Origin: Cyanidioschyzon merolae
Taxonomy: Eukaryota
Direction: 5' to 3' (one strand)
Length of the DNA stretch: 64,000 bases
Assembly (NCBI GenBank): GCA_000091205.1
Contig: AP006493.2
Part shown: one piece after another, positions 8,827 to 57,930 of the stretch
Layout: each line of letters opens with the position of its first letter
How positions within the stretch are numbered: position 1 is the stretch's first letter
Notes under the pieces: model-generated
What the model saw: only the letters and a program-made list of their open reading frames with translations
Told to the model about the DNA's origin: nothing
The model's database searches: none
Program-made: the position numbers and the translations under genes

Positions 8827-11800
8827 GTTTCGAGTCCGCAGGATATGCTTTCGTGCTGCCGAGCATGCCCCTCTGTCAGACTCTGGTCCAGGCGCAAGAC
8901 CCGGAAGCATGCGAGCGAGGTGCTCGTTATCCGTCGCTTGGAGACGAGGTCATCAATGGTGATTCAAGCTGCCTATGCAGCGAGATCGAGAGCGGTCTGT
9001 TTGCGCACTACACGGCTATGTAATCCAGGTATCAAAAGGAGGCACGTGAATAAATCCATGGAGCTGGCGTGGTTTGTTATCCGTACACTGCTTCGTCTTC
9101 ACGGCATCTGTCGGGCCACTGTATTCGTCCATACTCGCCACAACAGTGCGTTTCATCTCTTGGAAGAATTTGGCAAACCTCAGCATCGGTGGTAGGATCC
9201 AGATTCTTGTGACTCCAGCTCAATGACGTGGAATGTTCAGCGGGCTCGAGGGTCGCACCGCAGATGGTGTTGAGAATTGAGGATAAGCGGCGGTTTCGAG
9301 GCCGCGGAGCCCATTGTTTCTGACGGCAACGATACAGGAAAACTCTCTAACGCTCTGGATGACCTAGTAAAAGATATGAGTGAAACGCAACTTTTGTAGA
9401 AGCTTCAACGGCGGCAACGCAATTGGCCTCAGTGAATTCCCCATGCATCCCTGTTTACTTGCAATTCCATACGGAATATCGCCAGGATGTTTCGAAATCG
9501 AATGTCTGCACTCGGACTGCATCTTTCGATGCGCTATATGTTTCGCGACATGCGTTCTTGGCACCGTGCCTGCATCCGATACGAATATCGATCCACATTT
9601 TCCAATGCCTCAGACACCACTCCGTGAGCAATGCTTTGATTTAATCGTAGTCGCTCCGGGGAACTAGATGTCTATACAACTATGTCCTTGATTTTGCTCC
9701 ATGAACGCGTGCAACTCTATTTGCCCACCTAATAATGAACAGCGGGAGCTGCAGGCATGGAAATCTGCAGGTTCGGCTATGCTTCCGTCGTGAGCGCCAC
9801 GGCGACGTATATCCGTACGCGCTCTTCATGTTGACGTGATGTACAGTGCCACCTTCGCCAAGGAATACTCCATGGGTTCCACAGCGCGCCTGAAAGCATC
9901 AGAGACCCATTCATCGCGGTATGAATCAGAAGACTTTCCGAATTTTCCTCTTTCCAACGGGATCGAGCACTCGATCTCCTACCGATGGTGGACGCCTCGC
10001 GTCTAAAGCGAGCTTCAGATCCAACTATTGAGAAAGGATCGGCGAGCTCGAGATGCAATCTCAGAATTTCATTGGCACTGAATCATATCACATATACGAA
10101 TCAAACACCAGAAAAGGTGTCGAGAACCGAGCTTTCGGGAAAAAAGCTGATCAAGCTGCAGCGGCACGGCCGACCTCCGTTGTCGCGGTGATACCACTCA
10201 TATCCAGAGGCGAGCGTTGCTCGACGACATGAGATAACCCTTTCATTCCTAGCCTTGTTTCAAAATACGTCAAGCCTTTAAGCAGTATCACGAAGTGTTC
10301 ATCGAAATGCGTCTCGATGGAAGCGTCTGAGTACGGCTCGGAGCGGTCTCGCACGGAGCACGCAACAACCGCGTCGTATATTCTATTTCATAGAAAAGTG
10401 CAGCTCGATAATCGTTCACCAGTGACCAAGGGCGCGTGCTGCTAGTGTATATATGCGGTGCTGTAGCCTTGCTGGATCGCTGAACCGTACCATACCCGTG
10501 CTTTGCTCCTGGTGAGAGCTCAATCTCTTCTTTGCTGGCGACAGATATTTTTCATCGCAAGTCGACAGCCTTTCAGTAAAAAACCCACGTTGAGCACGAA
10601 ACAATTACCTCAAAATTTTGCTATAGATAAATCCACTGGACGCTGCGGAACCACGATCCAGATTCGAGTGTTGACCGAGGTGTCAGCTCTCGATGGAGAA
10701 ACTCCGTGCGAGCATGGTTGTTCGTGGAGTCACACAATGGAGCAAGGCTTTCGGCATCGATTGCCGCACCATCTGACTTTCGGTCAGCTTCTCGGACACT
10801 ATCTTATGCATCCGTCTTTTTTCTCACGCTGTCACTGTCCAGCAGTTTCAGCGCGCACTCGATCTCTTGACGCATGTACATTGTCATGAACGCTTCCGGG
10901 GGAATCGTGCAGAATCGATTGCTACTCTCTCATACTATCTCGTCGAAGGAATAAGGAGCCCAGAGTATACGCGCTTCTTGACGTCCAGCGACATGCACTA
11001 TCACTGAACGACGCGACTTACCCGTCAATTCTTTCTTCAGCTTTTTGAACAAGTTCGCGAACGCCCGCTTCTTGCTCGAGTACAACCAAAATCGTCAGGC
11101 GCTCAGCGTGATCTCAGATATTCCGACGAAAGCTCGTCCCCATGAGGCATTTTGACGCTGGTTTTGCGCTCTGAATGAAGCGTCCAGAGTATCCTACTCC
11201 TCAGCTCGCTGCGATGAGTCGAGCGTTGAGATGGGCTCTCACACCGTCTCTGCGTTCCTCGGTATGCTCCCTGGCGCCCTTCATGCATTACTTCCAATGA
11301 TAGTCGGCCCTGGCAAATCTGAACAGCTCCATCTGCGTCCCATTCAGGTTTTTGAAGCCGTCTTCTTGATTTAGCGGCATGGTGCCGTAGATCATGCCGT
11401 ATACCCGGGATCTAGGCAATATCTTTCCTTGCATCTGCTTTGAACGTTCGGAGACGAATCTCGTTGTCCGACCTGGGCCAAGGTTACGCGGAGTGCATGT
11501 GTGCCGATATTCTTTAAATCTTCGTCGTCCTCGTAAACTCTTTTTCATTTCCTCTCAGTAAACGAGAATCCCTGAATATGCTTCTCCTGTGCACTTCGCG
11601 TGGGTGCTCGAATACTTCCCAGTTGCTCGCAGGGACCGGCTCCTTCCTCGCCCTTTCTATCACTTAACGGGGCGGGATCGAAGAATGAACTATTTTCTAT
11701 TACCATTTTTTATCAAGAATTGGGCGGAATGGGTTGGTCGTGGGCCCGGGGCTTTCGCTCTTCATGCACGTACCCGTGATTCCCCAAAATGCCTCATCAT

Positions 11801-11920
11801 CAACTTGTTCGTCGCAAGCACGCCCACGGAACGAAGCGCGTCTTTACATTCCCTCCTGGTGACGAGCAGAGACGCAATAGACCAGTGCAGGGCTGGTGAG
11901 GGTAGCGGATGACTTGTCGG

Positions 11921-12232
11921 TTAACGGTCGGCGAAGAATGATATCACTGGTGCGAAGAACTCGTCCTTAGATCCGAGCACGTACGCCATGCGTTTGGCAA
12001 CAGACAATTCGCCTTCGACTGGGTTCAACCAGGAAGAATAGGCACGTACGAAGAGCACTTCGACGCCACTCTTGTCCGCGTATGCCTTGCCCGCTTTTGC
12101 CGAATGGAAGGCGACTTTGTCTAAGAGCAAAACAGAAGACTGTGCGAAGAAGCATACACGAGAAGTGCGTAGACGAAGGGCGCTGTGTTCTGCAGTCCTG
12201 TTCATTTGACCAGTTATAGACAATCTCTCCAT
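11921..12232 (-). mobile_element. decayed DDE transposase fragment (Tc1/IS630-like C-terminal region), copy 1
   Basis: Translation 'LLLDKVAFHSAKAGKAYADKSGVEVLFVRAYSSWLNPVEGELSVAKR' resembles the Tc1/IS630 C-terminal block (LDNAxxHxxKxVxxWL...xFLPPYSPDLNPIExxW). Not part of an intact ORF. Paralogous to 53810-54169. Confidence 0.55.
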
Positions 12233-14493
12233 GGAATCGCCTTTAGGGCTACACTCAACAGATTGGTCGCTTGTCTCTTCTTCATGAACAGCATTTCGCT
12301 ATTATATGCGTGGCAACAGGCAGGCCAACGATTGCTCCCGAATGAGATCTAATCGAGTCAGACGAGCCCCTGTCGCTCCTGTACTGAGCATTCGCGTTTC
12401 AATATAGAATCGTTAGTGTATTCTTCAATGCACGACGGTCCCTGATGGAAGCAGGTATTTTCGTTTTACAGGCATTCTGTAAATCTCTGTTCTAATTATA
12501 AAAGAAGCACCTCGCTGCGGGAATGGATGAATGCGACCAAGCTGCATGGACGCTCCATGTCGACTGATGGTTCGCTGAAGACAGATAGGGAGCCTCTTCG
12601 TGCCCTCTACAGCACAGACTGCAACTTACAGCCATGTGCTGTATTTTCGGTGTACCAGACTACGAGGCACAGCGCCCTGGATCCCTGGTCGATGCGTCCG
12701 AGCAGCGCCTGCTCAACAGCTCCGTACCCGTGCGAAACCTGGCTTGCTAGCACGTCCTGTGCTGCCCAAACTAGACGCTAGCCGAGCGGTGCTGAACACT
12801 TCAAGGAGCACTCGTTGCCTCGCAGGAAGCATGCGCTCGGACAGCAACGGTGATGGAATACGAGCTACTCGGACTCGTTCGCGGGCTTGGATCTAGAGCC
12901 CTGCACGTCGAAGAGTAGCAACCCATGCGGCCTTCTCATGTGGAAACCAAACTCCTGGAGCGGTGATTTCGTTTCCGTCTATAGAGACGGAACTTGGAAG
13001 AGGTCTGTGTTTCCCGGCGCAGTGATTATGGCATGGTGGAACCAAGAGAAGCGACAACTACTCCACTTCCCGATTAAAATCAAACACTGGATTGCGCGCT
13101 ATGCTCATGCCTTTGTGCTTTTTTTCGAACCGTTTCTAGATGCGAACTCTCTGTGCAGTCGAAGGAGAGTAACATGGTCTGGCTGTCTCATACATAGTTG
13201 CAGCATTCCCGGTTGTATTTTCGGAGTGGCACCTTCGGAGCTGTGCCCTTGAAATTCGATACGTCACCGGATTCAAGATCATTCGCGAGGCTGTCGAAAC
13301 AGGGATCGTCAAACAAGCGACTTGATCATTCAGTTCATACGGATAACGCTCCGTTCTTTTCCTTGCCTTACTTGAGGCACGCTCCAATCACCCACTCTTC
13401 AACTTCACTAACTTTCTGTTTTAAACCGATTCGTGGGCATAGCAAGTGGCGCCGTTGGGCACTCAACGAAGACTACTTGACGTCATTTATTGAGGACCTA
13501 TTCTCACGCCCGTGCCGAACGTGTATTGAATTTCTAATTTCAGATCATCAATTTCGTTCTAAAGGAAAATTCGTCTCTCTTTATGGTCATGGATAATGCG
13601 GCATTCGACGGCAGCCTGATTCCTCTCCTGGGGGCATGCGCTCACAGACTCCCGTCGCTTCTGTTTGCATGAAAATGGGCCTTGGACTCGGAATCGAGTA
13701 GTCGCAGCGATCGCATCGAGCGGAGATAGTGTCAGCAATTGCACGAAGAGCGCGTAGACGGGTCTGCATTGCCTCGACTTATTCCCCAGCCTGGAGTTTC
13801 CATCTGGTAGTGATTCATTATGGACGAAATCTCGTTCCACACACACGCTATCGAATGGAACAGCGTGCGCTTGCGTGTGCAGCGGACAGAGCGCTTGCCA
13901 CGGCGATCGACTAGAAAAAGTCCGTGATCGTAGTGTACGCGGCCAGGCGCAGAAACGGAAGAGGCATCCACCGGAGCCTTCTGTACTCGTCAAGAGCGTC
14001 TACAAAGCAATGAAGCAATCCTTCATGCACCTCAAGACGGCCCTCGATTGATGAGTTGTGTTGAATGCATACGGGAACACCTGGCCTATGCCAAATGTCA
14101 TCCCTGGGAAGGACGTTCTGAGGCCGTCCATAAACAAGGTGAAAATGTTAAGTGAATCGTAGATCGCAACTTTCGCCTGCGTATGAAGTGCTTCGACTGC
14201 AGCCGGAAGCTGTGTAAACAGGTCTTGTACGCTGCCACCGACATCCTTCTGCTACTGACAATGGAGCTGGACGGAGACACTGGTGTACTCAAGGCCGAAG
14301 ATGAGGGAAAGGGAGAGCAAAAAAGTCGCAGCCAGAGCCTCCAAACGCTGTTTTTGATGGCAATGGAAACAGACCCAAACTTTAGCTTGTATGCCCGTGT
14401 TCTGTGACCTGCCCTATATTTTTCTGACATGCGGTTTAGATGCAAAGGGCCAATGTTCGGTGTGTACGAATCGCTGTACTGCAAATGTGACTG

Positions 14494-14640
14494 AAAGAAA
14501 AACCAAGCGCGCTTCGAATGCGTTCTAACACGTGCTCATAGTCTCTGGTATGTATCCCCTCAACCGTGGACACTGTTCACTACTTGAGCATGGAAGAAAA
14601 ACCAAGCGCGCTTAGAATGCGTTCTCGCACATGTTCGCGA
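14494..14640. repeat. two copies of a ~47-bp direct repeat spaced ~98 bp (GAAAAACCAAGCGCGCTT[C/A]GAATGCGTTCT..)
   Basis: Copy at 14494-14540 is downstream of the ORF; copy at 14592-14640 covers the last codons of the 14580-15962 ORF. Confidence 0.7.
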
Positions 14641-15962
14641 ACTCTCTGGAGCGCATTCCTCATCACGCTGAGGATCACAACGAGAAATTTCGAAACGATC
14701 ACGCTGATAACGAGAGCGTAAAAGCCAACTAGCACGGAACGAGCTGGATTCACAGCGGTGCGACAACGCTCTGGGATGTGAAAATATCGGTGTAGGAACA
14801 CGTCTGCAACGGTATCAAACGCGAATTCGGTCACCAGACCACATATGAAAGATAGCAAAAAGCACACGGCAACTGACGCGGTGATCACCAGCGCGCGTAG
14901 TGCAATGTGCACCGCCCAAGACAAAGCGTGAAACTGAGCCTGCTCATCAACAGGATCTGTGAACCCGATTCGGTGTCGCGTGGCGTGCACGTCAACGACC
15001 GTGTCTATCAGTCCGAGTCGGGTCGCAGAGCGTTCATCACGCGTGCGCGCTGCCTGATCTGCATGATTCCGAACGATATTGCTTGAAAGCAGCGTCCTTT
15101 CGGTTCGTTGCACGACCCGTCGCATGAGCTGCTCATGCATTCGCATCGCAGCATTCGCTACCGCGACCAAGACGTGCCGAGGCTCGGCGTCAGCAAAGTC
15201 CGGATATGCGCAATCCAAAAGCAACCATTTTTCTCCTTCAACTCGGTCTATAACCGTGGACATACGTGGATCGTGCGGTGTCTGGGACCCTTCCTCCACT
15301 GCAGTGTTCGCCCATGGATCGGTCCATCGAAAATCAAAGCAAGCATTATCCTGGGTTTCCATACCCAACCATATCCATATAACCGCCTCCATACACTCGG
15401 TAGAATACATGTTTCCGCAGAGTTCGCATCGGAGCCTCTGCGCGCACCAATAGCTCCGGACGAAACTCGGACAACTGCTCACCAGTAACACACGTGGACT
15501 ACACAAAACAACCAACCATTCCGCTATAAACGCATAAAGCATCAGGTTCAATCGGTGCATGTGATTCCGACTCTCCTGAGTGGTGTGCGAAACCGAGCTC
15601 CACAGAGTCCGCGGAATGCCCGCACTGAAACCGCTGCAGCTGCCCTGGTCCTGCTCTGCTGTCCACAACGTGCAGTGCTTCTGGACTCGGCCACTATCGT
15701 CAGCATGCTCTTCCCACAGTGGCATTCTTCTCGTTGCGTCACAGTCACGATTCCGAGTCGCACTCTCCAGAACCCGCTGGGCTGCGGCGAGAACCCAGGG
15801 ATTCGGCCAAACACCCGTCGCGTAGCCCTGCTTGCGCAACCATAAAGCGAGACACTCGGCGTGGACGTGTGCAAGCGTCCCTCGACAACCACAGGCGCGG
15901 AATAGACGCTGCGTGCCTTCGTGAACCCCGCAAAGACACAGCCGGCAACTTGCTGCGTACAT
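14580..15962 (-). CDS. membrane protein with N-terminal degenerate RING-CH (MARCH-type) zinc finger
   Basis: N-terminus 'C-RL-C...C-G-C-RGTLAHV-H-AE-C-LALW' fits C-x2-C-x14-C-x-C-x7-H-x2-C of RING-CH, but the final C-x2-C pair is absent. Two predicted TM segments near the C-terminus ('VITASVAVCFLLSFICGLV', 'VLVGFYALVISVIVSKFLVVILSV'). The ORF is long (460 aa) but function is uncertain. Confidence 0.35.
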   Translation of the reverse strand: MYAASCRLCLCGVHEGTQRLFRACGCRGTLAHVHAECLALWLRKQGYATGVWPNPWVLAAAQRVLESATRNRDCDATRRMPLWEEHADDSGRVQKHCTLWTAEQDQGSCSGFSAGIPRTLWSSVSHTTQESRNHMHRLNLMLYAFIAEWLVVLCSPRVLLVSSCPSFVRSYWCAQRLRCELCGNMYSTECMEAVIWIWLGMETQDNACFDFRWTDPWANTAVEEGSQTPHDPRMSTVIDRVEGEKWLLLDCAYPDFADAEPRHVLVAVANAAMRMHEQLMRRVVQRTERTLLSSNIVRNHADQAARTRDERSATRLGLIDTVVDVHATRHRIGFTDPVDEQAQFHALSWAVHIALRALVITASVAVCFLLSFICGLVTEFAFDTVADVFLHRYFHIPERCRTAVNPARSVLVGFYALVISVIVSKFLVVILSVMRNALQRVREHVRERILSALGFSSMLK

Positions 15963-27032: not shown

Positions 27033-27471
27033 GCAACCCTTTCCTCTGAGAGTCCTGAAAGCTCAAATGTCTCTAGAGCAGCGTACAGCAATGCGCTTTC
27101 TAGTACGCCAAACCGACTGACATAAACAAGGATACGCTTGTGCCTGGTGTGTGCGGCGCTGCACGCCCTGGATGCGGACACGCGGACGCCAGCGTTAGCG
27201 ATCGACAAACGTCGCTGTGATTTTGTTTTTCGATGACGAAACCACGAACATGGACCATAGATCCCAGATTGCCGGATGGATACTGACTTTCGGGAAAGCG
27301 TCCATCATGATGCGGCACTCTACCTCCAAGTTCCATTACTGATACTTCCTTTCGGATGCACTGGTCGTTTTTTACGTACTGTCGAGCGTCAAGCGCCGGT
27401 GCGTCACGGTGCATGGGCGAGGCAGCGAGTCCGTGTTCGGTGTGAGAGGCATGCTCATCCGGGGTTTCGCG

Positions 27472-30236: not shown

Positions 30237-32410
30237 AACACCATGGAACGCGGCATACTTCCGGTTCGATCATGAAGAATTGTCCTCGTAAATGTTCAGA
30301 GCATGCAATCGTTTCGCGATCACGAATTTTGCTGCGCAAGGGCTTCAGAGGATGTCGGCGTGCTCGCGATATCAGCGCGGTATCGGACGCTCGTGTGGGA
30401 TGCGAACTGCTTTGGCGCATCTCTTGGCCAACAATTTCAGATTGGCGCCTCTGACGCAAGCCAGCAGCGCATGGGTAAGTAGAAAAGATGCTTCAGATAC
30501 GGGGTATTTTCGGACAATGCCAGTGCGACACTTTTCACAGAGGTCTGGTTTGGCGTGCGAATGAAACGAGTTTCGGGTGTTCCGTCATCAAGCAGGCGCC
30601 TGCAGACCGCCATTGACACTGTATTCGAGTGCGCGTTTTCAGGTACTGCAAGCCGCACGAATGCTACGTGAGACGCGCCGCTGCGTCGAGCCGCACCGTC
30701 TCCCCCGACACAGCGCCCTGAATACAGCGAGTCGTATCGTAGGAAGCGGCGAATAGTTGCAGTGGATGCTACATCGCTTCAGATCAAACGTTCCAGATCA
30801 TCGAGGCAGCGTGGTGCACAGCTGGATTCCTGTAAACAGGGAAGAAACCTCCACAACGCGTTCGGGTATGGGATGCGCTTCTGGCGTGCGCTATGGACAG
30901 TTCAGGCAGGCCATGGAAAAGGGCTTGGCATCACGCGCACCCAGCAGCGTCAATTCACAACGACGCAGTTTGTCACGAGATGGCTGCTATGTTGACACTC
31001 GGCGCTGCGACGATATCGCTTCCATTTCATTTGCCATGCGGGGAATCGAGCAATGAGCGTCGCACTTGGCGGCGTGCTTCGCCGTCCGCAACGCGCAGCT
31101 ACCGCAGCTCGAGCGCCCAAGCACACCGCAGACCAAAATGGAGCACTGAACTGCTCGATGTGCTTTAGCAGTTCGATTTCTTGGACATTTTTGAGGTGCA
31201 CAGCCTCGAAGTACAAAATTTCGCACTAGGGGCTTACAGGTTCATACTCCATTCAAGCATTCTCGGGCGTCTTGTCGATGCGGATGCTTCGATACATCGG
31301 CGATGGCATTCGTGATGCCGAGGAAGGCAAGACGATTCGCAAAGCCCTCGAACACGGCATCGTACAATAACTGAGATCGTTATCCAGTTCATGGCTGCAA
31401 GCTCTCGCGCTTCCCTTTCGCTACTTGAAGCATGCTCAACTCATGTAGTCTTCATGCGTAAGATCTTCCTGCCTCAAGGCAAATATTTCGTACAACAAAG
31501 CTCGTAGCTAGGTTTAAGAGGAAAAATACTCGAGGCTGTCCATTGAAGATATCTTCACAAGTTCATGCTGAAAGCGCGCTGAGCTTTTTCACTAAATAAC
31601 GATGATTCCGGTTGAAGAACACATCCGCTTTTCTCTGTGGCCATTGACGAGCATGCATGCAGTATCTGCTTGATTTACCTCATGAGATGCGCCGTCGGAG
31701 GCGTGCATCCATTCTGTTTGCGTGGAGAAGGGGTTTTTGGACTCGGACTGGAGTCATTGCAGCGATTGCCCCTGGTGGAGCGTGCTTCACGCCATTGCGC
31801 GAAGAAAGTACAGACAGATCGAAGTTTCTCGACTTGAACTCCAGTCTGGGTTTTCCTTCTGGTACTTGTTTCGTCATCAACAACATTGCGCTAAAGAAAT
31901 TGCTCTATAAAAAATGGAACAGCGCGCGCTTGCGATGCGGCAGACAAGGCACTCGCCGAGGGCACCGCCCAGAATAAGATCGTCGTCCTAGATGCCACAT
32001 GCATCGCGGAAACCGAGGAAGCCATCGAGAAGCACCTGCAGTACCCGTCAAGGACCTGTACCCAGCACTGAAGCAAACCTGCACATACGCCCCAGGGCTG
32101 CCCTCGGAGCGGATTCCCCCAGCCAGATAGAAGCACCAGACCGCAGTCGAGTCGCACCGGTTCCAGGGAGGTACCGAGAGTGTATGCAAAGCAGATGCGC
32201 GCCTCAAGCGAACTGTAAGTCACAACCTCCGCTTGTCTATTCATTGTGTCGACAACGCAAGCAATTGGCGAAAGCGCGGATCTAGCACTGCCATCGACCT
32301 CTTTCGACTGCCTACAAGTAAAGCTGGAGCGAACGAAGAGACGCATATAATGAAAACCTTATATAAATTGGAAGGAAAAAAGGAAAGCAGTCGGAAAAAG
32401 GAAAAGCCTG

Positions 32411-34009
32411 GTGTTGATGACCCTAGGAAGCGGCCTGAACGTTGCTGTTGTTTACGCCCAACTGAGGTACATAGATCCTGCCTCCGTAAACCCGCTAGGT
32501 GCGTCGCGCTATCAGGAGCTACGGCGCCGACGCGCGCACAAGTCGTCGTTGCAGCACCGGCATCTGTGCGCACCAGCGCCACTTTTTTTCCTCTCTGCTA
32601 CTACGACTGCTGTTGCTGTTACTGCGTTTACTGTTGCTGCGCTACCGTTCGATACCAGCGTTCTGATCCGAAGTGCGTACACTTCGGTGTGCGGTTCGTT
32701 TCATCGAGCGAGGACTTGCGGCATGCAGACCCACGGTGTGCCATTTGCGCCAGACCCTACGCGTCAGTCTGCGAATCGACTACGGGTACCGACGGTGGCG
32801 ACGAACCCCGCAGCGCAGGTGCCGCCACCGGCCCCACCGCAGGGCCCGCACCACGACACCACGGTGTACCAGGAAGCACGACCCGCTGGCGACTTGCGCG
32901 TGCCGCGGGAAACCTGGAACTTGCAGGCTGGGAGCCTCGAGAACACCTTCAATGCTGGGGGCGCTTGGCAACCTCTGCAAAGTGAGGCAGTTGGTGCCCC
33001 CGGCGCGTTCTTCGAGCCGGTGTCATCGGCGGCGGCCCGTGATATTGGCTTCAGTAACGTAAGACTGCGTTCGGATAGCGCTGCTTACCAGCAACACGGG
33101 AAGAACATTTACGGACAGCAGTATTGGAACCAAATGTTTGGCAGTGGTCAAGCCCTGACTTCCATGGTGAGTCAGTTTGCTCGCGTGGCATGGATGAACA
33201 TGAGCGGCACATCGCCGCAGGCAACCCAGGGAGCCAGCGTGTCTCCGGATGCCGGCATCTGTCCACAGAGTTGGGCGTTTTACGGAATCCCAAAAGTTTA
33301 TTTTCAGGTCGATGTGGGATACGTCATGCGAAAGCTGTTGATTCTGTTTTTCCCTTTCTACCACCGGTCCTGGTCTCGAAAACGAAAACCGATCGATCCG
33401 TTTGTGAACCCGATGGACCCGGATGCAGCTATCCAGCATACGACGCAGCGCTTGCTTCCACCGAGCGAGGACCCGAATGCACCCGATCTATACATTCCAG
33501 CGATGTCGTTCGTAACCTATGTGCTGCTTGTCGGCTTGCTGCGTGGAGCGGAGGGCAAGTTTACGCCTCAAGCTATGGGCGAATGGGCATCGATGGGCCT
33601 AATTGTCATCGTTTTGGAGGTGTTGCTCATCCGTGTGGCGCTCTTCCTAGCGCAGGGTCCGTCGGTGCCATGGTTCGATCTGATCGCATATTCGGGGTAC
33701 AAGTTCGCGGGGCTCGCCTTTGCGACCGCGTCTACGCTTTTGGCTTCACGGCTCACGCATGGTCGAACTTATGTGTCATTAGCAGTGTTGCTCTATGTCT
33801 CCCTGATGATGGGTCTATTCTTACTTCGCTCATTCAGAAGACTGCTCCGTTCGGAGAATCCAAGCGGGGATATGTCAACGATGGCGGCATACGATCCGAC
33901 ATCATGGGACACTCAGCAAGCTCGACGCAACTATGTGCTGCTCTTCATCGCGCTGTTGCAAATCCCCATCTATTTGCTTCTTGGCGTGCAAACCTGGCGT
34001 CATTTATAG
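32411..34009 (+). CDS. YIF1: YIF1 (Yip1-interacting factor) ER/Golgi membrane protein, with long low-complexity N-terminal region
   Basis: '[25 protein letters not shown]', '[26 protein letters not shown]', '[23 protein letters not shown]' match the YIF1 core ([22 protein letters not shown]...[22 protein letters not shown]...LLAYSGYKYVGMI). The true start is possibly internal (e.g. Met near 32723). Confidence 0.8.
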   Translation: [532 protein letters not shown]

Positions 34010-35054
34010 TTGGGGCGTTCGCGCGACAGAGCGCACAGGCCTCGTTGACGCAAGTGCACATTCGCGGTGGCGGCATCCATGAAGGCCGCCAGCGCGGCCT
34101 ACGAACTCCATGTGCTCTGCTCCAACAAGCGGTACACGTGCACCCGTCACACTGGAAATTCCGAGTCGTTACGCTCGAGAATTTCGACTTTTTGGAGCAC
34201 CATACTCGTTCATCCACTGCCACGGAACCGGTCCCAGGTGTGTAGATGCGGCGCCCCGGCCTTGCTGACTCGCTGAACCGTCCCATACCAGTGGCGTACC
34301 CCACGCGAGAATCCAAGCCTATCTCTCATGGCCACTGATATGTTTTCATCGAAAATCATCAGCGTTTCACGACGATGCCGCCGCTGAGTCCTAAAAGACT
34401 CGATCGACACTTCGCTTGACACAAAGCCGCTCACCGCTCCAAAAGCACCAACCGTTCCCAAATGTTGATCGCGGCATTCAGGGGTCGGAGCAGATGGTGC
34501 TGGCGCGCACGGTCGCTGGTGGAATCAAACCATGGCAAGTCGCTCGCCTTCGACTACCCAAGAATCTGTCCTTCGGTAACCCGTGCGGCACATAAAATCG
34601 TGCATCCATCTGTGTTTCATCCTCATCTTTTCTACATGTTTCAGCGTGAACCGGTGCTCATGGTGCGTGCGTGTTGTCCTCGACTCATCGTTGTGTATCC
34701 ACTGAATCGATTCCTGCAGTCACTCGATGCCAACGTCGAAGGATCAGTAGTACAGCGCGCCCGGCGCCATGGGCTATCACCAAAGGAAGCGACTTTTCTG
34801 TGATTTGTCTGTCTACAATGATTGAATTGATTGCCAAGTGCACGCATCGCGCCTCTATAGAGCCGAAACTGTTGGCGACCACAGCTGATGTCTTTCGCTC
34901 CTTCCAAAAATCGTCCGAATGAGCCGTTTGGGGCACTGGTGTACTCGTCGAACGAAGCGTTCACAGCATCCCGATCAGTTCAATACAATGGTCAGCATGT
35001 CGAAACGGACAAAGAAGCAGTCACTCGTCTTCTTGGTATACCTCCGGGTGTCCA

Positions 35055-35537
35055 TCAAGACTGACGTCCGGTGATGACCAACCCTGCAACGTTGAGCCGC
35101 TTCACCTGCTTTTCGTTCAGGCTTTTCGCTCCGTCCGCTGGATAGAGTCGTATGGTGACGTCCATGGCGCCTTTCCACCCGGGATCCGCGCCAGCCCCGA
35201 AGTGTTTCTCTGCATCTACTCTGAACGGCTGGAATCGAGTGTCGTCGCTCGACTGAGGCCTAGATCTCACGAAGCGCATGCCAACTGATATACTCTCTGC
35301 CTCTACCGCCACTGTGAACATCTCTCCATTTCCATGCTGCAAACGAGAAACCCTCGAGCGAGCCTCGTTAGTGCTCTTCGCGAAGCGGTTCGAATGCAGG
35401 ATGCGTAGTCGCAGAGACGAGCCGCAGCACATTGATAACGCCCTCAGTACACTATACGAGTGTCTGCCATGAAAGAATGGGTCATGGTCCGACATATACG
35501 AGCCGCGTCCTATCGAGGCTTGCGAATTCGTGAGCAC
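35055..35537 (-). CDS. hypothetical protein (unassigned)
   Basis: 160-aa ORF in an ORF-poor interval; no recognisable motif. Kept only as a candidate. Confidence 0.15.
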   Translation of the reverse strand: MLTNSQASIGRGSYMSDHDPFFHGRHSYSVLRALSMCCGSSLRLRILHSNRFAKSTNEARSRVSRLQHGNGEMFTVAVEAESISVGMRFVRSRPQSSDDTRFQPFRVDAEKHFGAGADPGWKGAMDVTIRLYPADGAKSLNEKQVKRLNVAGLVITGRQS

Positions 35538-37130
35538 AAAAATGCCCGTAAGGCACGTGCATTGCTCTGAAGGGCTCTGCTTATGAAAATCTAGCTACAC
35601 GAGATTCAAGAAAGCCGGGAATCACACTCAAAGAATCCTTTGGATACGACTTGGGTGGTCGTGGCGCTCTAAGCGACACGATGAGGCTGGGCGGTCTGCA
35701 GCGACTCCTGACCTCGCAGCAGCATCTCCTCCGAACTCGAACCAGATTCGATCGCTTCCGTCACCAGCTCGTCGTTTGCCTCTATCGAAACCGCAGGAAA
35801 TCCTTCCACCAGTCACCGTGTCTCGGGTCCAGTGTTTTGAGGGTATAACGCTCTTGGCGTGCGCCTCATAAAACGCTCCACAAGGACAGACACATGCGTT
35901 TGGTCATTGAGACTGGTTTCATTCTTAATTGCATATGGACCGCAGATTTCCTTCGATCCCGGATGGAGTGCGGCGATGCGTCAGGGTATTCGAGGAGGCG
36001 AATGTTGAAACCTCGTTTCCGATGATCAGGCTTTAGTGCTTCCTTTGCTCTCGCGTTAGGTGTCACGCGAAGGTATGATCGAGGAATACGGAAGGAACAT
36101 GGACAGCGGGCAGCCTTGCGTACATAGCTCGTACAAAGCGTTGGTTGACGAAGTGCGTCAACACAATCGAAGCTCAGCGAGCCTTCCTCGAGTAACAAGC
36201 GACGCGATCCCCAATGGCGACCTGCGTCTCACGTTTTGGAAGATTCCCCCAGTTGATGTATACTGGCAGGGACAGCCCGTTGACGGATTCAGAAGGATTT
36301 CTCAGCCTCGGCAATGCTTCCATCCTACAGGACCTGGTCCACCTGCCGGGAGGATCCTTTACTGATTCATCAGGTGGTTGCCTCTCCTCTTCGTTTACTT
36401 GCCTGGGCAGCATTCAAATGTTCGCGGCACTCTATATCAGGTTTTGCTGTGGATGCAGACACACTCCATGGAAGGTGAGGCTGAAACGCGCTCACTGTCT
36501 GTACGGATCCCCGATTCCTATAACGCAGCTGTTCGTCACTTCAAAGTCGCGTGCGTGCCGACGGACCAAAGCGCATTTCTCAGCGCTCTCGACCCGAGAC
36601 GCAGTAGTGCGGTGCAGAGCTGATGAAAGTAGAGAACGACTCGACGAGCAACTGTTTCATGGATGCGAGCGACTCGCCTAGAAATCTGTGAGCGTGAAAA
36701 TGGCGTTTGCCAATACAAAAGACGCCTTGGAATGGATGGAACTGTGGCGGATAGGCTCGAACGAAGAGCAGCTCAACGTCGCTGGAAGCCGTTTACATTT
36801 TCGCGGCTTTTGAGTGAATTTATAATAAACCAGGACAGGAGAATGCGTCAACGATCGATGAGCTGTTGAAAGACGCCGTCCGCTTGGCGAGTTGTTGGCG
36901 ACAACGTGACAGCATCGCTGCTAGAGCCATCGCTGCTAGAGCTGACGTTCACAGCATGCTCGCGTATCGCGTTTTACGATCAGTGTTTTGTCCCTCTTTG
37001 AATGCCCATAGGCAGGCCTGTCACTTCCCCTGAATCATGGTTCGTCGAATGTGACAAACCCGTGTTCATCGTGTAATTAGCGTTCAGATAAAAGCACGAA
37101 ACCCGTTTGGAGAGGTTCAGCGAGCGTCCG

Positions 37131-37475
37131 TCAACCATTGATGCCGGTGTTTTTCTTCATCCATCCAATGCCCTTCATCACCGTTCGTATCAACAGTACG
37201 GAAAATAAAACTTTTGTGGCTTTTTTCATTCCATTTCGTAGAGAACGTCTAGAATGGGAATGGAATGCCGAAGAAACATTTGTCCAGCTAAACTTGGCGA
37301 GGTTCTCTTTTGTTGCATGACGTTCACCATAAAATCTCCGAGGAGGGTGCTCCATCCACCTGCTGACCGCAGAATGACTGACTTGGATTATGAAGCTAGT
37401 TGTTTCATCAGGTACTGGAGGTGTTTTTACGTCTTTTCGCGAAGTTTCTTCAATCTCCCGGACACAATCCTTCAA
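37131..37475 (-). mobile_element. decayed transposon fragment, copy 3 of the repeat family (N-terminal-proximal segment)
   Basis: Nucleotide similarity to 54400-54500 ('CATCCAATGCCCTTCATCACCGTTCGTATCAACAGTACGGAAA' vs 'CATCCAATGCTCTTCATCGTCGTTCGAATCAAAGGCACGGAAA', and 'AGAATGGGAATGGAATGCC' vs 'ATGGAGTGGAATGGATTACC'). Plus-strand peptides 'FFFIHPMPFITVRINSTENK' and 'FFDHPMLFIVVRIKGTETSH' correspond. Confidence 0.5.
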
Positions 37476-39559
37476 TGGAGTACTGGTGATGAAAACGTTC
37501 GCGCCGGAAAAAGTATTCCAGAATTCACTGTTATGAGTCTAGAGCCCCGGGCCTGCTATGTTGCATACGGCAAACGCTGTATCTTACGGGCGCTCGTAGT
37601 CGAGAGAACGTTCTTTGCGCTGTGGCAAACCATCGTATACGGCATCTTGTCTATGCAGTCTCTGTGGGTATATGTTCCAGACTCGAAAAGACGTGCCCGC
37701 ATAGCTTTTGCATCTATTGCTCCTTAATTCGGAGGGGGACGCTCCCACGCTGTATCCAATGCAGGTTCATTCTAGGCGTTTTATCGTGTCACGAGTCGGG
37801 GTACCAATGCAACTCCAGAGTCACGGTGTCGCGTTACACCCGGGTCATTCTTAAATCCAACAGGTCCTCTAATGATGGCGTATGCAGCTCGTTTCTGGGC
37901 CTCGCCGCATTGTCATCAACACCAGCTCCTTAGAGCTTTCCCTTAACTGCTCCCATTTTCTCTCTGTTAACTGCGGTTTTCCATCCGCCAGTCCGTCCGC
38001 CCTCTTCAGTTCCGTTACCAACAGCCGAAGAATGTTGATGGCAGCACTCAAGTCCGGATTTCGCTGATTCCGGCTAGAGTCGATTCAGTGGATGCACACC
38101 GTTGCGATCTACGCTTCGCTTGCATGTTCATCTGGTTTGTACGCAGCGTCGATGAACGGCCTTCGCAGCAGCGACACTCGATTGCGGTCAGGTGTCCCCA
38201 TGAGTCCATTATATATCCTTTTCCCATGGCTGCACTGCAACGCATGAGCGCATGCTTCATAGATCGATGCATGTCCTTGACGGCTACAGAGCGCTGGTCT
38301 TGATGCGCTCCTCCGTTTCCGCGCCCTGTGCCGTACCCTACGATCACGAGCTTGCAGCGGGCAAGGCCCTGGTCGAATACTCTGTCCGCTGCAAGTGCAA
38401 GCACAATCTTCTCGATTTCGATTGAGGATTTCCGCGACGCAATCTTGCTCGTGATGAACTGAGTAGCGGAAGGAAAATCCGGGCTGAAGAACAAGTCCAG
38501 CCAATGTCGACACGTCTACATTCCCTTCGTCAGAGGCATTGACAAAGTCTCCAATGCAAGCGACCGCTCCGATGAATACAGACTGGGTCCAAGACCCTTT
38601 TGCGTGAAACAGGAGTGACGGGAACCTATGGGAGCATTCCCGAAAACAGTAACATGCTGCTGATGTCGAATGCCTTGTCATCAAAGGCCACCAGGAGAGG
38701 CGGATTTTTCTTCCGCACAGAGTCGATTACTTGAAGTTACAAAGTCAGTGAACTTTCCGCTTGGGCTTGCGAACAAGTCATCACAAGCCGACGTCAAGAA
38801 ATGTGACTCGTCTACCTAGCGGCACGAAATGCTCCATTCACGAGTTACGTTGAAACGGAAAGATGCAGAAAGGTAAGAACGCTCGATCTGAACACACTTC
38901 AAATAAGCAAAGAAGAAGCTTGCGAGCACTTCAGTGTTCCATTTTAAGCTGACAATACATCTAGCACCCAGAACGTCACTGAGTCCGATCTCCAACCATA
39001 AGTCGCGGTCCGAAAAGCGATGCTGAACGAGGAGCTTGTACGCTGTACGGGGATTCACGCAGCGCGAATGCTTCACGCTCGGGGTTCGGTCCCCGATCCA
39101 GTTGGTTTCAAGGCTCCATCAGCATCCCGTTTCATTCACCGTTCATCATCTAGTGTACGGACGGGCACCCGCATTGCGTCAGCTGCTCACGAGACACCAG
39201 CAACTTCACCATCGCTATCGATAGGCGCAGCGCCCCCGGTGCTGCCTCATGCATCTGAGCGCTGATCCCATCGAGCGTACGGATCCAAAGCTCATGGAAC
39301 GTCGTCACATTCGGAAAAGTGCCACGACCTCCTTCCCTGATGCCGATACCCATTGCGAACCCGACAGGCCCCATTCCATGCATCAATAGAGAAAAACGTT
39401 CTTCGATCAACGAAACATCAACAGTTTACCGTGATCCCGGATTCGAGGCACCAGCGTTGACGCGCTGGCGGGCGCAACGTCGATGCAGTCGCCGTCGCAG
39501 GTGTGCATCGTTACGAAGCGCCTCCTACGGCGACGTCCTGACTGACCCTGCGACCTCAT

Positions 39560-51660: not shown

Positions 51661-53809
51661 AAACGGTCGGTGCGTCAACGCATCGAGGCGGGGTGACGCT
51701 GGCGCGCCGTGCCGACTCACGTCATCTAGGGGCGATTCGCAAGCATGAGACTGACTCCCTCAGAGGCAGCGTGTGGAGGCGATGAGGTTAACCTGCCCTG
51801 GCGTCCGCGAAGGTCACGTTGTTCTCTCGAACCCCGATGGGATGAGCGATCCCGTACCGCAGAAAAGGGCTAGGTATTTCTCGTTGCAGCAGAGCCGCTT
51901 GATGAGCGGTGAAATCCACAAGCAGGGTGCGCGTCGGACACGGGGAGAGACGGTGAGGGAAACGCTCCCGAGTGTTTTCGGGAGACGCACTGATACGCGA
52001 TCCTTCGATGCTTGAGCAGCGACAGTGAAACCTGGTGGGAATTGCGTTTTCCAGATACAGCATCTGTCAGCAGCATGGCACCTGCAAAGCATGTGTGCGT
52101 TTTCTCTGCTTCTGGTGGAGATCGCATTACGCGACGCGTCCCATACGCCGCACCATTGCCGATGCGTGCTGATGCGTTGACGTGCTGCGTGCCGGCGCGT
52201 GACGCATGTTGACTTTCCCGCCTAACTGAGCGTTCCTCTCAGGAATGCTGCTGTGAAGATGAAGAACGGTGTCTCAGTGATGTCTTGTTCCCTTGATGAT
52301 AGTGGCTCAGACGGGGCGCTGCGGCAGTCGATACGGAGAGGGGCGTCCCCGTCTAGGAACGGCAAGCGTCCGATGACCCGTTTCTGTGCAGTCATAGAAA
52401 GTCATGGAAAATTCGTATCATTTACCAGTTCCCGTGAAAATCGTTGACACTACACAGACACAGCGTTTCATCTTTGCGTAATTGCTAAACTTTCTGTAAC
52501 TGTGCCTTGTTCTCTGCGGCAATTTTTTTAAATTGACAAAACGTTTACATCGGCCAGCGTTCTCCGATTATGCGCGTTTTCCTTTCTTTTTGGGGTTTTT
52601 CAGTGCGCGGCAAAGTATCCATCAAACTCCCTACTTCCAAGTTACATAACCTATGCTTCTTCTGGGATATTCTGGTCATTCCATACGTTCTATCGTGTGT
52701 GCCTACTGCCTGCCGAAAGCGACAGCAATGGCGCCTGTAGCGCCGGTGCGGTCGCTGCACGGAGACAGAACGGCGTTGCCGTACCACACAGAGAGGGCAT
52801 CGGCTCGCGGTTCTGTCCGGGAATGCAATGCCGTGTGTGTCGCGGTCACTGATTCCCTTTCATTGCAAGTCTTTGGTACTTCGGCACAACGCTCACGCTG
52901 AGAATTAGACGATGCTCTGGAAAGCTGACTCGATTCGTAGCCGCTGAACGCTCGGGGCCACGAGAATCTACCAGATGTCAATTGAGACGTTCGCGTTTCA
53001 GTGCGGAACGTGCATGCGCGCAATATCGTGGACGCAATCACACGACAGCAGGCCGCTCGCCCCCGGTGGCGTCGCCAGTCGACGTTCGGTCAGCTTGTCG
53101 TACACCATCGCATACATCAGAATCTGTTTCACGCAATTGTTCTCTATGTGTTTCAGCGCGCATCCGTGCTCGTGATTCGTACATGTAAAATTGAACTCTT
53201 CCATGGGCATTTCACAGTGTTTATTTACGTCTTTCGTGGGACGCTGTCGCTGGAGAACGCTTGCAGCTTGTGCGCAACACAGCAGCACGCGCACCCGCCG
53301 TTGGCTACCACCCATCGCAGCGAACGATTCGTCATTTCCTTTTTTGCAACTCCTTGAACAAGCTGTAGAGTCCAAGCTTCCCGCCTCTGTATGAACAGAA
53401 CTATTGGCGGCGCCAGCGCGGTCTCATGCGCTCTCTGGGGCATCGCATCGTGTGCATAAGTACTCGCGTTTCTGGGACAACTAGCTGAGGCAAGAACGCC
53501 CACAGAAAGCGCGCCAAGAAGCACTCGCCATTTGCCCACACGGTCTCGCTCGTTGGGGCTGGTTTGAAATTTTTCTGGGCATCGTAGCTGTAGATACCCG
53601 AATCACTGACGTGCCGCGGAGACTCGTCCCCGGATTCTAAGAGGCGTCTGTGCACACCTCCGATCCAACGATTAGGCCGAAGTGCATCTTCGGCATCGGA
53701 CATTTGTTGTATTGCCGCTTACAGATTGGATTGAATCGTTTCAATGGAAAGTGGACAAATGGTAGCCCTGCGTCGGTGACTCCTATAAACGGGTGCTCGA
53801 CGAGATGCG

Positions 53810-54539
53810 TCAAAGCGAGAAAAGGGTGGCGAAGGTATACAACGACTCGTCTGAGAACAGTTTGAAAAACAGCTTCTGTGACCGGGATTCGAACAACTTC
53901 TCCATGCATCCGCGAACGTTAAAATCGAGTTCGACTACAGAGAAGATGCGTTCTACTGGATGAAACCAGTGAGCATAGGCTGACACGAGGAACAGCTCAA
54001 CGCCAACCTCAGTTGCGTAGACTTGTTCCTGAGCCTTTGCGTTGCAGAAAGCAGCTCTGTCTAAGAGCAGGCCAGAAGAATGAGATAAGGAGAAGTCACC
54101 GTGACTGCAGCGATGAGGCATGAGCTGTTGAACGACCGTGTCGATTTGGCGATTTCGAGCCAGCTCCAAGATTCAATTGCCGCGAGTGGTGGTGTCTTTC
54201 GGAATACTCGCTGATCTCTTCTCTCCGAATAAAAATTCGCCCATCGTTGAGTATCCATATGCAGGTCTAGCATTTCTCCTCAACAAAATCTCATCCAGTG
54301 CGACAAACACCTAGCTCTCGTGTAATGAGCGTTCGCATGGCAGTATGGAATCCATTGGTCGTTGGTCAGCGAACATCTATCTGTCAATGAAGCACACGGT
54401 TTTCTTTGACCATCCAATGCTCTTCATCGTCGTTCGAATCAAAGGCACGGAAACTTCACATCCCGTCACGTCTTTGATAGTACTTCATAGGAAACGTATG
54501 GAGTGGAATGGATTACCCAGGAGACAGTCGTGGAGATAG
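53810..54539 (-). mobile_element. decayed DDE transposase element (Tc1/IS630-like), copy 2: C-terminal block at 53810-54169 plus upstream segment at 54345-54539
   Basis: 'LLLDRAAFCNAKAQEQVYATEVGVELFLVSAYAHWFHPVERIFSVVE' is paralogous to copy 1 ('LLLDKVAFHSAKAGKAYADKSGVEVLFVRAYSSWLNPVEGELSVAK') and resembles the Tc1/IS630 C-terminal block (FLPPYSPDLNPIE). 54345-54539 is nucleotide-similar to copy 3 (37131-37320). Reading frames are broken. Confidence 0.55.
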
Positions 54540-55431
54540 ACGATGATGAATTTTGTTCAGGGTGCACTAGGTTCCGGGAAAAGACTACGAATCAGTGATT
54601 CATGAAAATACTGACCGTCGACAGACTGACCGACAGATTACGCTATGATTTCCATTGCATTGAGGACAACATCAAGTATTTCCGCCATGGTACGCGAATC
54701 TAAAGAAGGTATTCCTTTGATGGAATACAAGCGAGAAAAACAAACAATACCAAAATGGGACTACTGGCGCAAATATTCCAAGATATGCTGCTCTGCCTAG
54801 AACGGTTTCGCGTCACCATTATTCCCGGGGAGGCAATTATTGTTGCACCACGCGTACGCGACAGGCACATCTCGACCTGCTCGTTGACGCTGTCTCATGC
54901 ACGGCTACGGCTCAATGCAAGCCTCGCTGGATCCTGATTAGTGAGTCGGAGCATGTACTGCTTGCGATATGAAGCGTGCTCCAAGGAATTTGGACGACAG
55001 GGTTATAATGTTCGCCATGAACATCTCTATTTTTCCTCGGTTACCTATAAGCAGCGTATACTTTGGCTGATCGCGTCCGCTACTGGTAAACGCACGAAGA
55101 AAAGCCAGCGTTCTTTACGATCGCGGGTGCGCCAGCGCTGTGCGACCCGTGCGCGCGCTCGAGGAACGCGCTGCAGTGCGATGGCTTTGCTTATGCATGT
55201 TGAGGCTGCTCTACCAACGCCACTGTTTCGCACGCTTATACAGCAGAAAGCGGTACTGAAAGTGGAATCGTGCTCTCTAATCAATTCGAGGCTCCACTTT
55301 CAGTGTAATCATACATAGGGAAACGTTCGCTGTATCTTGACTCGTGTCAGGTCGAAGCGTCTGTCCGTTCGAGTTGCGACTCCGGATAACAGCGCGCTAT
55401 AGCCACGCGAGTAGCCGCTGTTTCCGCTGAA

Positions 55432-55950: not shown

Positions 55951-57930
55951 ATGCGTGGCTATGTTCACTGCATAGCACGGCACTGTGCAAGCAAATTTGC
56001 TCTACCACAAGCGACATTCGTGCACGTCTATTCTGAATACATCCGCCGATAATTTACGAGACTGACTGCGCTGGTCGTTGTCTTGGGCGCACGCGCTCCA
56101 TAGTCGTAGACTCTAACGGAACGGCATGCTCTGGCATCCGCACGATGTTCGAAGGCGCGAACGTTCAGGTGACGCGACGTTGTTTCATGGGCGTGTCTCT
56201 GGGATAGCCATGGATCGCTTCATATAGCATGACAAGTCGTTGTGTGCTGCTGCCGCGGTGCGACGGGAGAGCAGCCCCATGCAGCGCACGGCAGAGCGAA
56301 CTTCGCATGCGACTCCCCGCCGGGTCATCGGCAGCGCTGGCGCATCCAGAGGTATCTGTTGATATTCCTGGATTTTACAGGAGTAAGCGATTGACGAAAT
56401 AGAGTCTCTTCGCTGATCAATGGAAACGCTCGCGCATCCATGGGCATCTGGTCTGCTTCATCGATTCTTCATTATAGGCATGTCAGACAAGAATGGAACG
56501 GGCAGCTTTGCTGACTCGGGCGAAGAACGTAAAGTAACGGTCTCTTCCGATCGTGATGAATATAGGCCTTTTGTGGGATTTCTCTGCGACGGATAACCTG
56601 TCCGTACGCTAAACCTCCAGCATAAAATATGCGAATATCTGTTCTGCCTTCATCTCCATCTTCGCAAGCAGATGAATACTGATGGCAGCGTTCGTGTCCC
56701 GATTGCGCCGCTTCCCGCCTTTGTCGACGCTATTCATGCAGAGGCGCAAGTTGCGATCCGAGCTTCGCTTGCAATTTTCACTGTCTTTCTGTGCAGCCTC
56801 CAGACGCACTTCGCAGCGTTCATACACGAATGCAGACAGATGTGCCAGCGAGTGTCCACAGCAGCTCCTCGTCTGGCGGTCGGTCTTCCTTGGATGACCG
56901 TTTGAATCATCGCTCGGTACCAGCCATTGGCGGTTGCAGGAGGCATCCTGCGATACGCTGCTCCAAATCCGTGTCCGGTGCGGTGCACGACCAGTGAGGG
57001 TTGCTTCCGACTGGTCTAACCCCGATAAGCACACCGCTCCATTCCACAGAGGATATATGGAACGCCTCGTGCTCCACGGGGAAACGTGCAGCTGGAGCGA
57101 AATCTACGACGGAGAACACTTGGAGAGATTTCGCTTCGCCTCACTCATTCTTGTACAAACCGGTGATGCAGTTTTCACTCGAAGGAATCTCTGCGATGAC
57201 TGAAGACAGAGCCCAGCACTCTTGTCCATGCGAATACAAGCGACGGGAGCCTCTGCGAGCTAATGACGTGAGAGCTACGAGTGTACTGTCGAATTACGAA
57301 CCCTCGTCGACGGCTGCAAAGCCTGGAGCATACGTCGTTCGAGCGGAATCGAGCATCGGACGTGAAGAGTTCAGTGTGGCTTCCGCACACGCTCGGGAAC
57401 AAATCGTCAACGCGCGACATCGCGTACGTTACCTCAGCAGTCCAGCAGCGCGAATAGCTGCGCCCCAGTCCACTCTTGCATCCGAAAAATCGAACACATG
57501 AACCGTGCGCGATGTGCGGACACCTCGCCAACGGAAAGCAGAAGCGTCGAGGCTCGTACCTCTGAGTCACGTAATGATCTCACTTGTTGTACGAACCGTT
57601 GTTTGAGTGCGTCTCGTACGCCTTTGATTCCGATACCGTTGCGAGTTCCAGCGCCGATGCGTCGAAAGAGCCACGCTGATCAAGAGACACCCGAGAATCC
57701 CAAAACGAATCATGAAACCGGAATCCATGAATCCCGCACACGCAACGTCGAATCTATACACCTATGAAAATGGTTCGGAAAATACATCGAAGTCGAGGAA
57801 GAATGGAAGCGGTTCAGTGTTCCATGTTGATTCAACACTTGTATACAAGACCTGAACTGGATCTGAGGTCTTGGACAATCGCTAGGGCTCATCGCCTCGC
57901 CGCGGCCGACGACCGTGCTTCATCCCGCAG

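Follow-up and report, generated by a model that had tools for sequence, protein, structure and literature searches.

Gene-free intervals of the window and their repeats

The window, the whole 64-kb stretch of Cyanidioschyzon merolae DNA analysed here, is eukaryotic, has a GC content of ~55% and is tightly packed with genes that each read as one unbroken open reading frame (ORF). They include genes for WD40, RING, kinase, YIF1, iPGM, CrcB and Sec61 proteins. The Sec61 protein (49922-51349, minus strand) was found as an exact occurrence on JGI metagenome contigs, which match the window at 99.0-99.6% identity across 5.4 kb of genic and intergenic DNA; the metagenomes are presumably hot-spring samples. 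Two long ORFs stayed without a clear assignment: ORF 27472-29520 (minus strand, 682 aa) has no significant Pfam domain, and ORF 47162-49594 (minus strand, 810 aa) showed only a sub-threshold match to the RPC82 HTH domain in Pfam.

Three intervals (8.9-14.5, 34-39.5 and 51.4-55.4 kb) had been described as gene-free in an initial annotation of the sequence. They contain no long ORFs, and the Pfam-supported genes tested lie elsewhere in the window. Two more gene-poor intervals (29.5-32.4 and 56.0-57.9 kb) carry related remnants. A sensitive self-comparison revealed a repeat X with 2-3.4 kb per copy, all copies lying on the minus strand of the window and sharing 55-62% nucleotide identity. Besides X, the comparison showed a repeat Y of ~1.35 kb with four copies. 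The remains comprise one full-length X, two internally deleted X and four copies of the short derivative Y, and these seven wrecks fill the gene-free gaps of the window. A further metagenome contig from the same organism holds a fourth X copy with the same layout, here called D (L004:4675-7194). The features are as follows.

10377..12496, minus strand: X_A, internally deleted; aligns with X_B, X_C and the metagenome copy D at 55-62%
11924..12459, minus strand: transposase remnant of X_A; contains ORF 11921-12232; DDE_3 34.7 bits
10687..11350, minus strand: Fanzor1 remnant of X_A, C-terminal half; from tblastn and Fanzor profile
13073..14440, plus strand: Y_A, from the four-copy alignment; N-terminal two-thirds of the transposase joined to the Fanzor C-terminus
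31134..32443, plus strand: Y_2, alone in the 29.5-32.4 kb gap; blastn 13076-14383 vs 31135-32443, 59%, E 5e-68
34181..37560, minus strand: X_B, the sole roughly full-length copy, ~3.4 kb; 5' limit approximate
36634..37400, minus strand: transposase remnant of X_B; HTH part plus first D in one frame, C-terminus in a second frame
34407..36377, minus strand: Fanzor1 remnant of X_B, nearly full length; colinear profile matches
37908..38927, minus strand: Y_B, 5'-truncated, beside X_B; blastn 13356-14365 vs 38918-37908, 63%, E 2e-90
52534..52810, plus strand: 5'-end fragment of the published repeat CMe-1A/TE-N2_CMe, abutting the 3' end of X_C; blastn to consensus positions 4-256, 70%, E 7e-35
52818..54795, minus strand: X_C, Fanzor gene with a different internal deletion; blastn to X_A, X_B and D
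53813..54684, minus strand: transposase remnant of X_C, one frame with six in-frame stops; holds ORF 53810-54169 and the 54345-54539 module
56470..57831, minus strand: Y_C; blastn 13073-14432 vs 57831-56478, E 5e-49

X, Y and the one CMe-1A fragment, summed, make up these fractions of the gene-free intervals.

8.9-14.5 kb: ~62%
29.5-32.4 kb: ~45%
34.2-39.5 kb: ~83%
51.4-55.4 kb: ~57%
56.0-57.9 kb: ~71%

The proposal that such intervals are old insertion graveyards in a compact genome holds, as remnants account for 45-83% of each of them.

Transposase and Fanzor1 remnants in the X repeat

The peptides from 11921-12232 in X_A and 53810-54169 in X_C had been read as paralogous C-terminal fragments of a Tc1/IS630-like DDE transposase. 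Both were found at these positions on the minus strand, and an alignment confirmed their relationship (BLASTP 40% identity over 57 aa, E 5e-11). The class assignment is borne out by significant matches to the DDE_3 and IS630 profiles and by the D..D..E triad, which is kept in both copies. The X_A fragment alone passed the Pfam DDE_3 cut-off of 28.6 bits (E 2e-8), and its 103-aa ORF matched the NCBIfam IS630 model with E 5.5e-9; a word-indexed protein search with the same ORF returned only the ORF itself. X_C alone was weak in Pfam (13.8 bits) and reached 87.7 bits (E 3e-28, profile positions 52-286) against a profile of intact relatives, built locally from eight of the proteins described below. 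The triad reads LD.., LLLDKV and NPVEG in X_A and LDE, LLLDRA and HPVER in X_C. The spacing from the second D to the E, counted by hand, is 34 residues in X_A ('LLLDKVAF...NPVEG') and 35 in X_C. In X_B the second-D region is lost and Q replaces E.

A second module of the same element, placed at 54345-54539 and 37131-37320, is also shared (blastn 36992-37204 vs 54241-54453, 68% over 214 nt, E 3e-13). An 18-mer quoted for this module occurs exactly twice, at 37162 and 54411, against a chance expectation of 0, and codes for the stretch of this transposase that links the HTH to the DDE domain ('LIRTVMKGIGWMKK' and 'LIRTTMKSIGWSKK'). X_B, the third copy (36.6-37.4 kb), contains the C-terminal module too (36634-36816, 27 bits), which reads 'DVELLFVRAYPPQFHPFQGVF' with the motif 'DVELLFVRAYPPQFHPFQ'.

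Alignment with the local profile showed how far each copy has decayed. X_A matched at positions 209-271 (43 bits) and, in another frame, at 106-202 (11 bits); X_B matched at positions 23-169 (46.5 bits, E 1e-15) and 224-284 (27 bits, E 8e-10). In X_A the first D aligns at 'LV*LD*ISFGSN', hence a frameshift in this copy. The description of all copies as frame-broken stands for X_A and X_B, both frameshifted, and has to be dropped for X_C, which is unshifted over ~235 codons and contains in-frame stops only. The custom profile alignment covers the HTH region at positions 23-105 in X_B and 52-105 in X_C; none of the Pfam HTH models fired on the remnants. Judged by these sequence features, the fragments are those of an IS630-like, DD34E-type transposase, decayed by stops in X_C and by stops and frameshifts in X_A and X_B.

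Two candidate readings were rejected. One placed the upstream half of X_A in the frame of the ORF, with 'NAVHEEETS' as the first D; the profile match lies in the other frame. The second was an OrfB_IS605 match of Pfam in X_B (E 0.008), which we regard as spurious: it overlaps the C-terminal part of the transposase but is read in a different frame, and the real Fanzor remnants are found elsewhere.

Downstream of the transposase, colinear and on the same strand, X_A, X_B, X_C and D all carry Fanzor1 remnants. In X_A, tblastn with aa 536-673 of the CMe-1 Fanzor1 protein (translated from the consensus published by Bao & Jurka 2013) aligned to 11094-10684 with E 9e-10. Fanzor profile matches covered positions 475-608 (E 3e-10) and 396-448 (E 5e-4), so that ~390-608 is all that was detected in this copy. 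X_B showed matches at positions 18-109, 141-290 and 323-618 of a second Fanzor model and at 19-119 and 475-633 of the first. Its limits were set where identity drops to background, beyond ~37560 and ~34200, and blastn chains connect it to X_A, X_C and D. The X_C matches (positions 119-193, 467-500 and 539-613) are individually weak (i-Evalue 0.01-0.4) but colinear, and they are backed by tblastn with CMe-1 (E 0.002); within the limits of such weak individual matches, X_C is without the segment ~194-466. Copy D lacks profile positions ~119-415. As X_A and D align in one unbroken stretch, X_A probably shares this deletion.

In a six-frame scan of the 64 kb the first Fanzor model matched the X tails only, colinearly and on the transposase strand, plus one weak match in Y_C. 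The second model added one insignificant match (42627-42911, i-Evalue 0.89). Pfam detected nothing in X tails and Y (six-frame searches of the X_B tail and Y_A), and likewise nothing in seven reference Fanzor1 proteins, namely the six ORF2s of intact relatives and the CMe-1 consensus. The Fanzor assignment is based on custom profiles and on matches to CMe-1 and to PDB structures. A search for a guide RNA gave no Rfam match at gathering thresholds; the 3' 200 nt of X are marginally better conserved than the other parts (0.62-0.64 vs 0.55-0.60).

The transposase of copy D contains an ORF of 243 codons without stops (L004:4876-5607), with 17 near-identical protein variants in metagenomes. This would fit a family of domesticated or host genes of which some copies still function. 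We consider this extremely unlikely: in the ORF of copy D two of the three triad residues, the second D and the E, are replaced ('YLGKLALHH', 'FNSAAS') and there is no Pfam match, the window copies contain 5-6 in-frame stops and/or frameshifts, and nucleotide identity is alike across the transposase, Fanzor and 3' parts of X (about 55-64%). Stops, frameshifts and large internal deletions suit dead copies of a repeat better, as the initial annotation had assumed. Its decayed family at three loci is supported, and the self-comparison extends the homology to 2-3.4 kb per copy. That reading was incomplete rather than wrong; it did not include the Fanzor1 partner, the four deletion derivatives and the CMe-1A/TE-N2_CMe fragments.

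The Y derivative, arrangement and age of the copies

Single Y copies are not recognisable alone (best match E 0.002). A majority consensus of the four copies revealed one frame of 200 codons that matches the transposase profile at positions 26-227 (81 bits, E 2e-26) and, ~50 nt after it, a second frame that matches Fanzor positions 501-616 (E 3e-5) and reads 'PVIVVYGTG...WEHLTAVECHRCEG...RLCMNCV..RKRRNRDLNAAIDI'. Y is an internal-deletion derivative from which the C-terminal part of the transposase and ~500 Fanzor codons are missing. The junction is common to all four copies, so the deletion is older than their spread, and Y was probably mobilised in trans after it had arisen.

An E before a CxxC zinc finger followed by RD.NAA.NI is a hallmark of Fanzor proteins (2026 review, PMC13565253). 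The Y consensus contains the RuvC motifs 'WEHLTAVECHRCEG' and 'NRDLNAAIDI', with an E six residues ahead of the CxxC zinc finger, and Y_C retains 'RNRDTNAAISIH', a RuvC-III-like motif. In X_B the only RuvC trace is 'LRPLNAAINI', the D being lost. These motifs are surviving fossils only. The Fanzor of X has no CxxC, as in CMe-1, and that of Y has CxxC...CxxC, which makes X and Y two lineages of one element type.

Two local observations involve Y copies. Directly beside the RING-variant gene (14580-15962), at the 3' end of Y_A, lies a degenerate copy of the gene's 3' end (14439-14576 vs 14583-14660). The two stretches share 46 nt at 87% identity and encode the peptides '...HVLERIRSALGFS' and '...HVRERILSALGFS'; the duplicate may be an insertion or repair scar. 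A 22-nt inverted match, 91% complementary, connects 34692-34713 in the Fanzor C-terminal region of X_B with 38077-38098 in the zinc-finger region of Y_B. It holds the palindrome GAATCGATTC; by a hand estimate, about 1e-3 such matches would be expected by chance.

In three of three islands X adjoins a Y copy, at a distance of 0.3-1.7 kb, and simple independent insertion does not explain this. Together with the common orientation of the X copies and the equal divergence of X and Y, the arrangement would suit segmental duplication of a host block containing X plus Y, rather than transposition of separate elements. Such a duplication is very unlikely for several reasons. The spacers between X and Y share no homology, and Y in island A has the opposite orientation to Y in islands B and C. 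A non-repeat ORF, 55432-55950, by eye a putative ubiquitin-conjugating-enzyme-like gene, lies between X_C and Y_C. The 4.6 kb upstream and the 6.4 kb downstream of copy D contain no Y, and Y_2 has no adjoining X (X_B starts 1.7 kb away, past the YIF1-domain gene). The internal deletions also differ among the X copies.

Transposition of separate elements, the reading preferred here, agrees with the divergence pattern. Pairwise identity in X and Y is about 53-62%. For every pair within either family the Jukes-Cantor distance is 0.54-0.75, and transitions and transversions are about equally frequent. The copies, all of them dead, have diverged from their ancestors by ~0.3 substitutions per site per lineage through neutral decay. 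Such star-like divergence is expected from a burst of insertions followed by independent neutral decay.

Inverted-repeat searches and alignments of the ends, which are too decayed, revealed no credible terminal inverted repeats or TA duplications at any window copy; a terminal repeat of 20-30 nt may be beyond recovery at ~40% divergence. With such termini, transposition of the window copies has to be inferred from relatives. In the intact relative L008, TACACTC[T/A]ACC was read by eye, on a single contig, at both ends of the element, with TA outside each. Other relatives start with TTAYACTCTGTC and have a subterminal motif AATGTTACAC, which the shared start of Y, ATCAAAATGGAACACTG, resembles.

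Intact relatives and known IS630-Fanzor1 elements

A search profile made from the three C-terminal fragments and the single-frame copy of X_C was run against 1.84 billion representative proteins and revealed 227 relatives at E<=1e-3. The best intact relatives (P0005-P0012) are 293-302 aa long and matched profile positions ~47-283 with E 1e-17 to 1e-23. They passed Pfam DDE_3, scored 110-141 bits with the NCBIfam IS630 model (cut-off 100) and matched HTH models weakly. They are known solely from metagenome and raw-read assemblies, and a look-up of the ten closest cluster representatives in NCBI and UniRef found none of them present.

All seven contigs examined for intact relatives contain an ORF of 618-648 aa on the same strand, 10-115 nt downstream of the transposase. 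The contigs represent six distinct elements, as L009 is 100% identical to L008 over its whole length. Alignments of the downstream ORFs with the C. merolae CMe-1 Fanzor1 showed 28-41% identity over ~640-700 aa (E 1e-58 to 1e-155). A profile of these ORFs matched the solved Fanzor1 structures of Parasitella (9cf0, E 2e-18), Spizellomyces (8gkh, E 8e-13) and Guillardia (9cer, E 5e-4). Single-sequence PDB searches with the Fanzor ORF or the transposase gave no match; the profile alone succeeded. The six elements (L008, L010, L012, L013, L014 and L016) come from assemblies of 25-60% GC, on contigs of 2.8-4.2 kb, and in L009, L012, L013 and L016 the contig ends at a putative element terminus. The data on intact relatives suggest multi-copy, active elements in several hosts.

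That the intact relatives pass NCBI's bacterial IS630 model would also be expected if a bacterial IS630 had been acquired by horizontal transfer and had come to nest by chance beside unrelated Fanzor repeats. Gene order, strand and short spacing are repeated in four decayed copies and in all seven contigs examined for intact relatives (six distinct elements), the contigs span 25 to 60% GC, and the second gene matches solved Fanzor1 structures of fungi and a cryptophyte alga, which makes chance nesting very unlikely. X and Y are most probably the remains of extinct two-gene DNA transposons of the IS630/Tc1-mariner type that coded for a transposase and a Fanzor1.

The active element would have been ~3.3 kb long and would have expressed two proteins from one strand. 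The first gene would encode a transposase of ~296 aa that combines two HTH motifs with a DD34E catalytic domain. Directly after it, the second would encode a Fanzor1 of ~620-650 aa, a TnpB-like RuvC nuclease. Transposases of the IS630/Tc1-mariner type move elements by cut-and-paste at TA; as the relatives imply, the one encoded here would have cut out the element and inserted it anew at TA dinucleotides. Fanzor1 proteins are DNA endonucleases that use a guide RNA transcribed from the 3' end of their element, and, judging from them and from TnpB, such an RNA may have guided the Fanzor1 of this element. TnpB cuts the emptied donor site, and repair restores the element (review PMC13565253); Fanzor1 could likewise have cut the donor site and led to restoration by repair. 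Two lineages would have been active, X with a CMe-1-like Fanzor without CxxC zinc finger and Y with CxxC...CxxC. Neutral decay would have followed their activity, the remains now forming most of the gene-free intervals.

IS630 elements contain a single gene and are about 1.1-1.2 kb long. ISY100 of Synechocystis (PMC2170065), a member of the IS630 family, shares the profile family NF033545, a small transposase and the DDE triad with the window copies. Its N-terminal HTH motifs are known (PMC2170065), whereas the HTH of the window copies is covered only by homology to the custom profile. In prokaryotes a TnpB partner of IS630 has only rarely been reported (review PMC13565253).

Closer counterparts are the Mariner-type Fanzor1 elements PUl-1, PUl-2 and PUl-4 of Pythium ultimum (Bao & Jurka 2013, PMC3627910). 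Like X, they have a Tc1/mariner/IS630-type DDE transposase first and a Fanzor1 second on one strand. They are 3.4-3.8 kb in total, with terminal repeats of 24-33 bp and TA duplications (PMC3627910); in the window, by contrast, every copy is dead and neither termini nor duplications can be recovered, the transposase belongs to a short (~296 aa) IS630-like lineage, and the host is a red alga.

Eight class II 'transposase-related elements' have been described for C. merolae 10D, whose genome is almost free of transposons (Nozaki et al. 2007, PMC1955436); their nearest matches were bacterial transposases, with weak similarity (E 0.07 to 6e-7). The same study reported 253 copies of a 3.2-kb repeat with a truncated, WSV486-like ORF, and WSV486-like proteins are Fanzor1 (Bao & Jurka 2013, PMC3627910). 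The eight elements are very likely the same kind of remnant as the window copies; no family, no link to the Fanzor repeat and no deletion derivatives were given for them (PMC1955436). Seven remnants in one 64-kb window suggest that the count of eight is too low or that the region is exceptional. In the literature searched we found no paper linking the C. merolae transposase remnants to Fanzor repeats; a Repbase entry is possible. Mariner/IS630-plus-Fanzor1 elements and C. merolae transposase remnants have each been published before, and what is added here is the two-gene IS630-Fanzor1 element of C. merolae with its deletion derivatives.

C. merolae is the textbook case of the 'simplest' free-living eukaryotic genome, said to contain only eight class II elements and one enigmatic Fanzor-bearing repeat family. 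The window presents the transposase remnants and the Fanzor kind of repeat as halves of one old two-gene transposon. This gives the unclassified Fanzor repeats of C. merolae a plausible transposase and suggests that its transposon content has been undercounted. The finding leaves knowledge of how Fanzor or IS630 elements work unchanged; the multiple copies could allow an ancestral IS630-Fanzor1 pair to be reconstructed.

The published repeat CMe-1A has about 150 copies that are about 80% identical to their consensus, no terminal repeats and unknown class (Bao & Jurka 2013, PMC3627910). We infer that CMe-1A and TE-N2_CMe, the repeat of 2007, are one and the same, and by our reading of PMC3627910 and PMC1955436 they occupy about 5% of the C. 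merolae genome. CMe-1A and X belong to the same host lineage. The Fanzor remnant of X has its closest match in the CMe-1 protein (E 9e-10), and the two share a degenerate zinc-finger region. In contrast to X and Y, CMe-1A lacks a transposase, and its consensus contained no trace of one. Compared with the ~80% similarity that defines CMe-1A, X gave a 44-nt match in X_B and a 112-nt match at 66% in X_A, and Y gave nothing significant against the CMe-1A consensus. X and Y are families separate from CMe-1A. The ~0.3 substitutions per site per lineage of X and Y are roughly comparable to the ~80% consensus identity of CMe-1A.

On two grounds, namely its CMe-1-like Fanzor and a broadly similar age, an X-type element may conceivably have been the autonomous partner on which CMe-1A and TE-N2_CMe depended before it was lost; we offer this tentatively. 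If true, the main repeat family of C. merolae would consist of non-autonomous IS630/Tc1-mariner derivatives, and the amplification of CMe-1A would have ended with the death of the last IS630-like transposase. A less probable reading is that Fanzor suffices for the spread of CMe-1A, whose Fanzor1 genes stayed intact for that reason.

In addition to the fragment beside X_C, the window contains CMe-1A fragments at 27231-27397, 63858-63999 and 23680-23753. For all four (74-279 nt) the match is confined to the initial 160-256 nt of the published consensus, with 70-83% identity. At least those at 27.2 kb and 52.5 kb are intergenic, lying between ORFs, and the fragments at 27.2 kb and 63.9 kb are reciprocal best matches with 73% identity.
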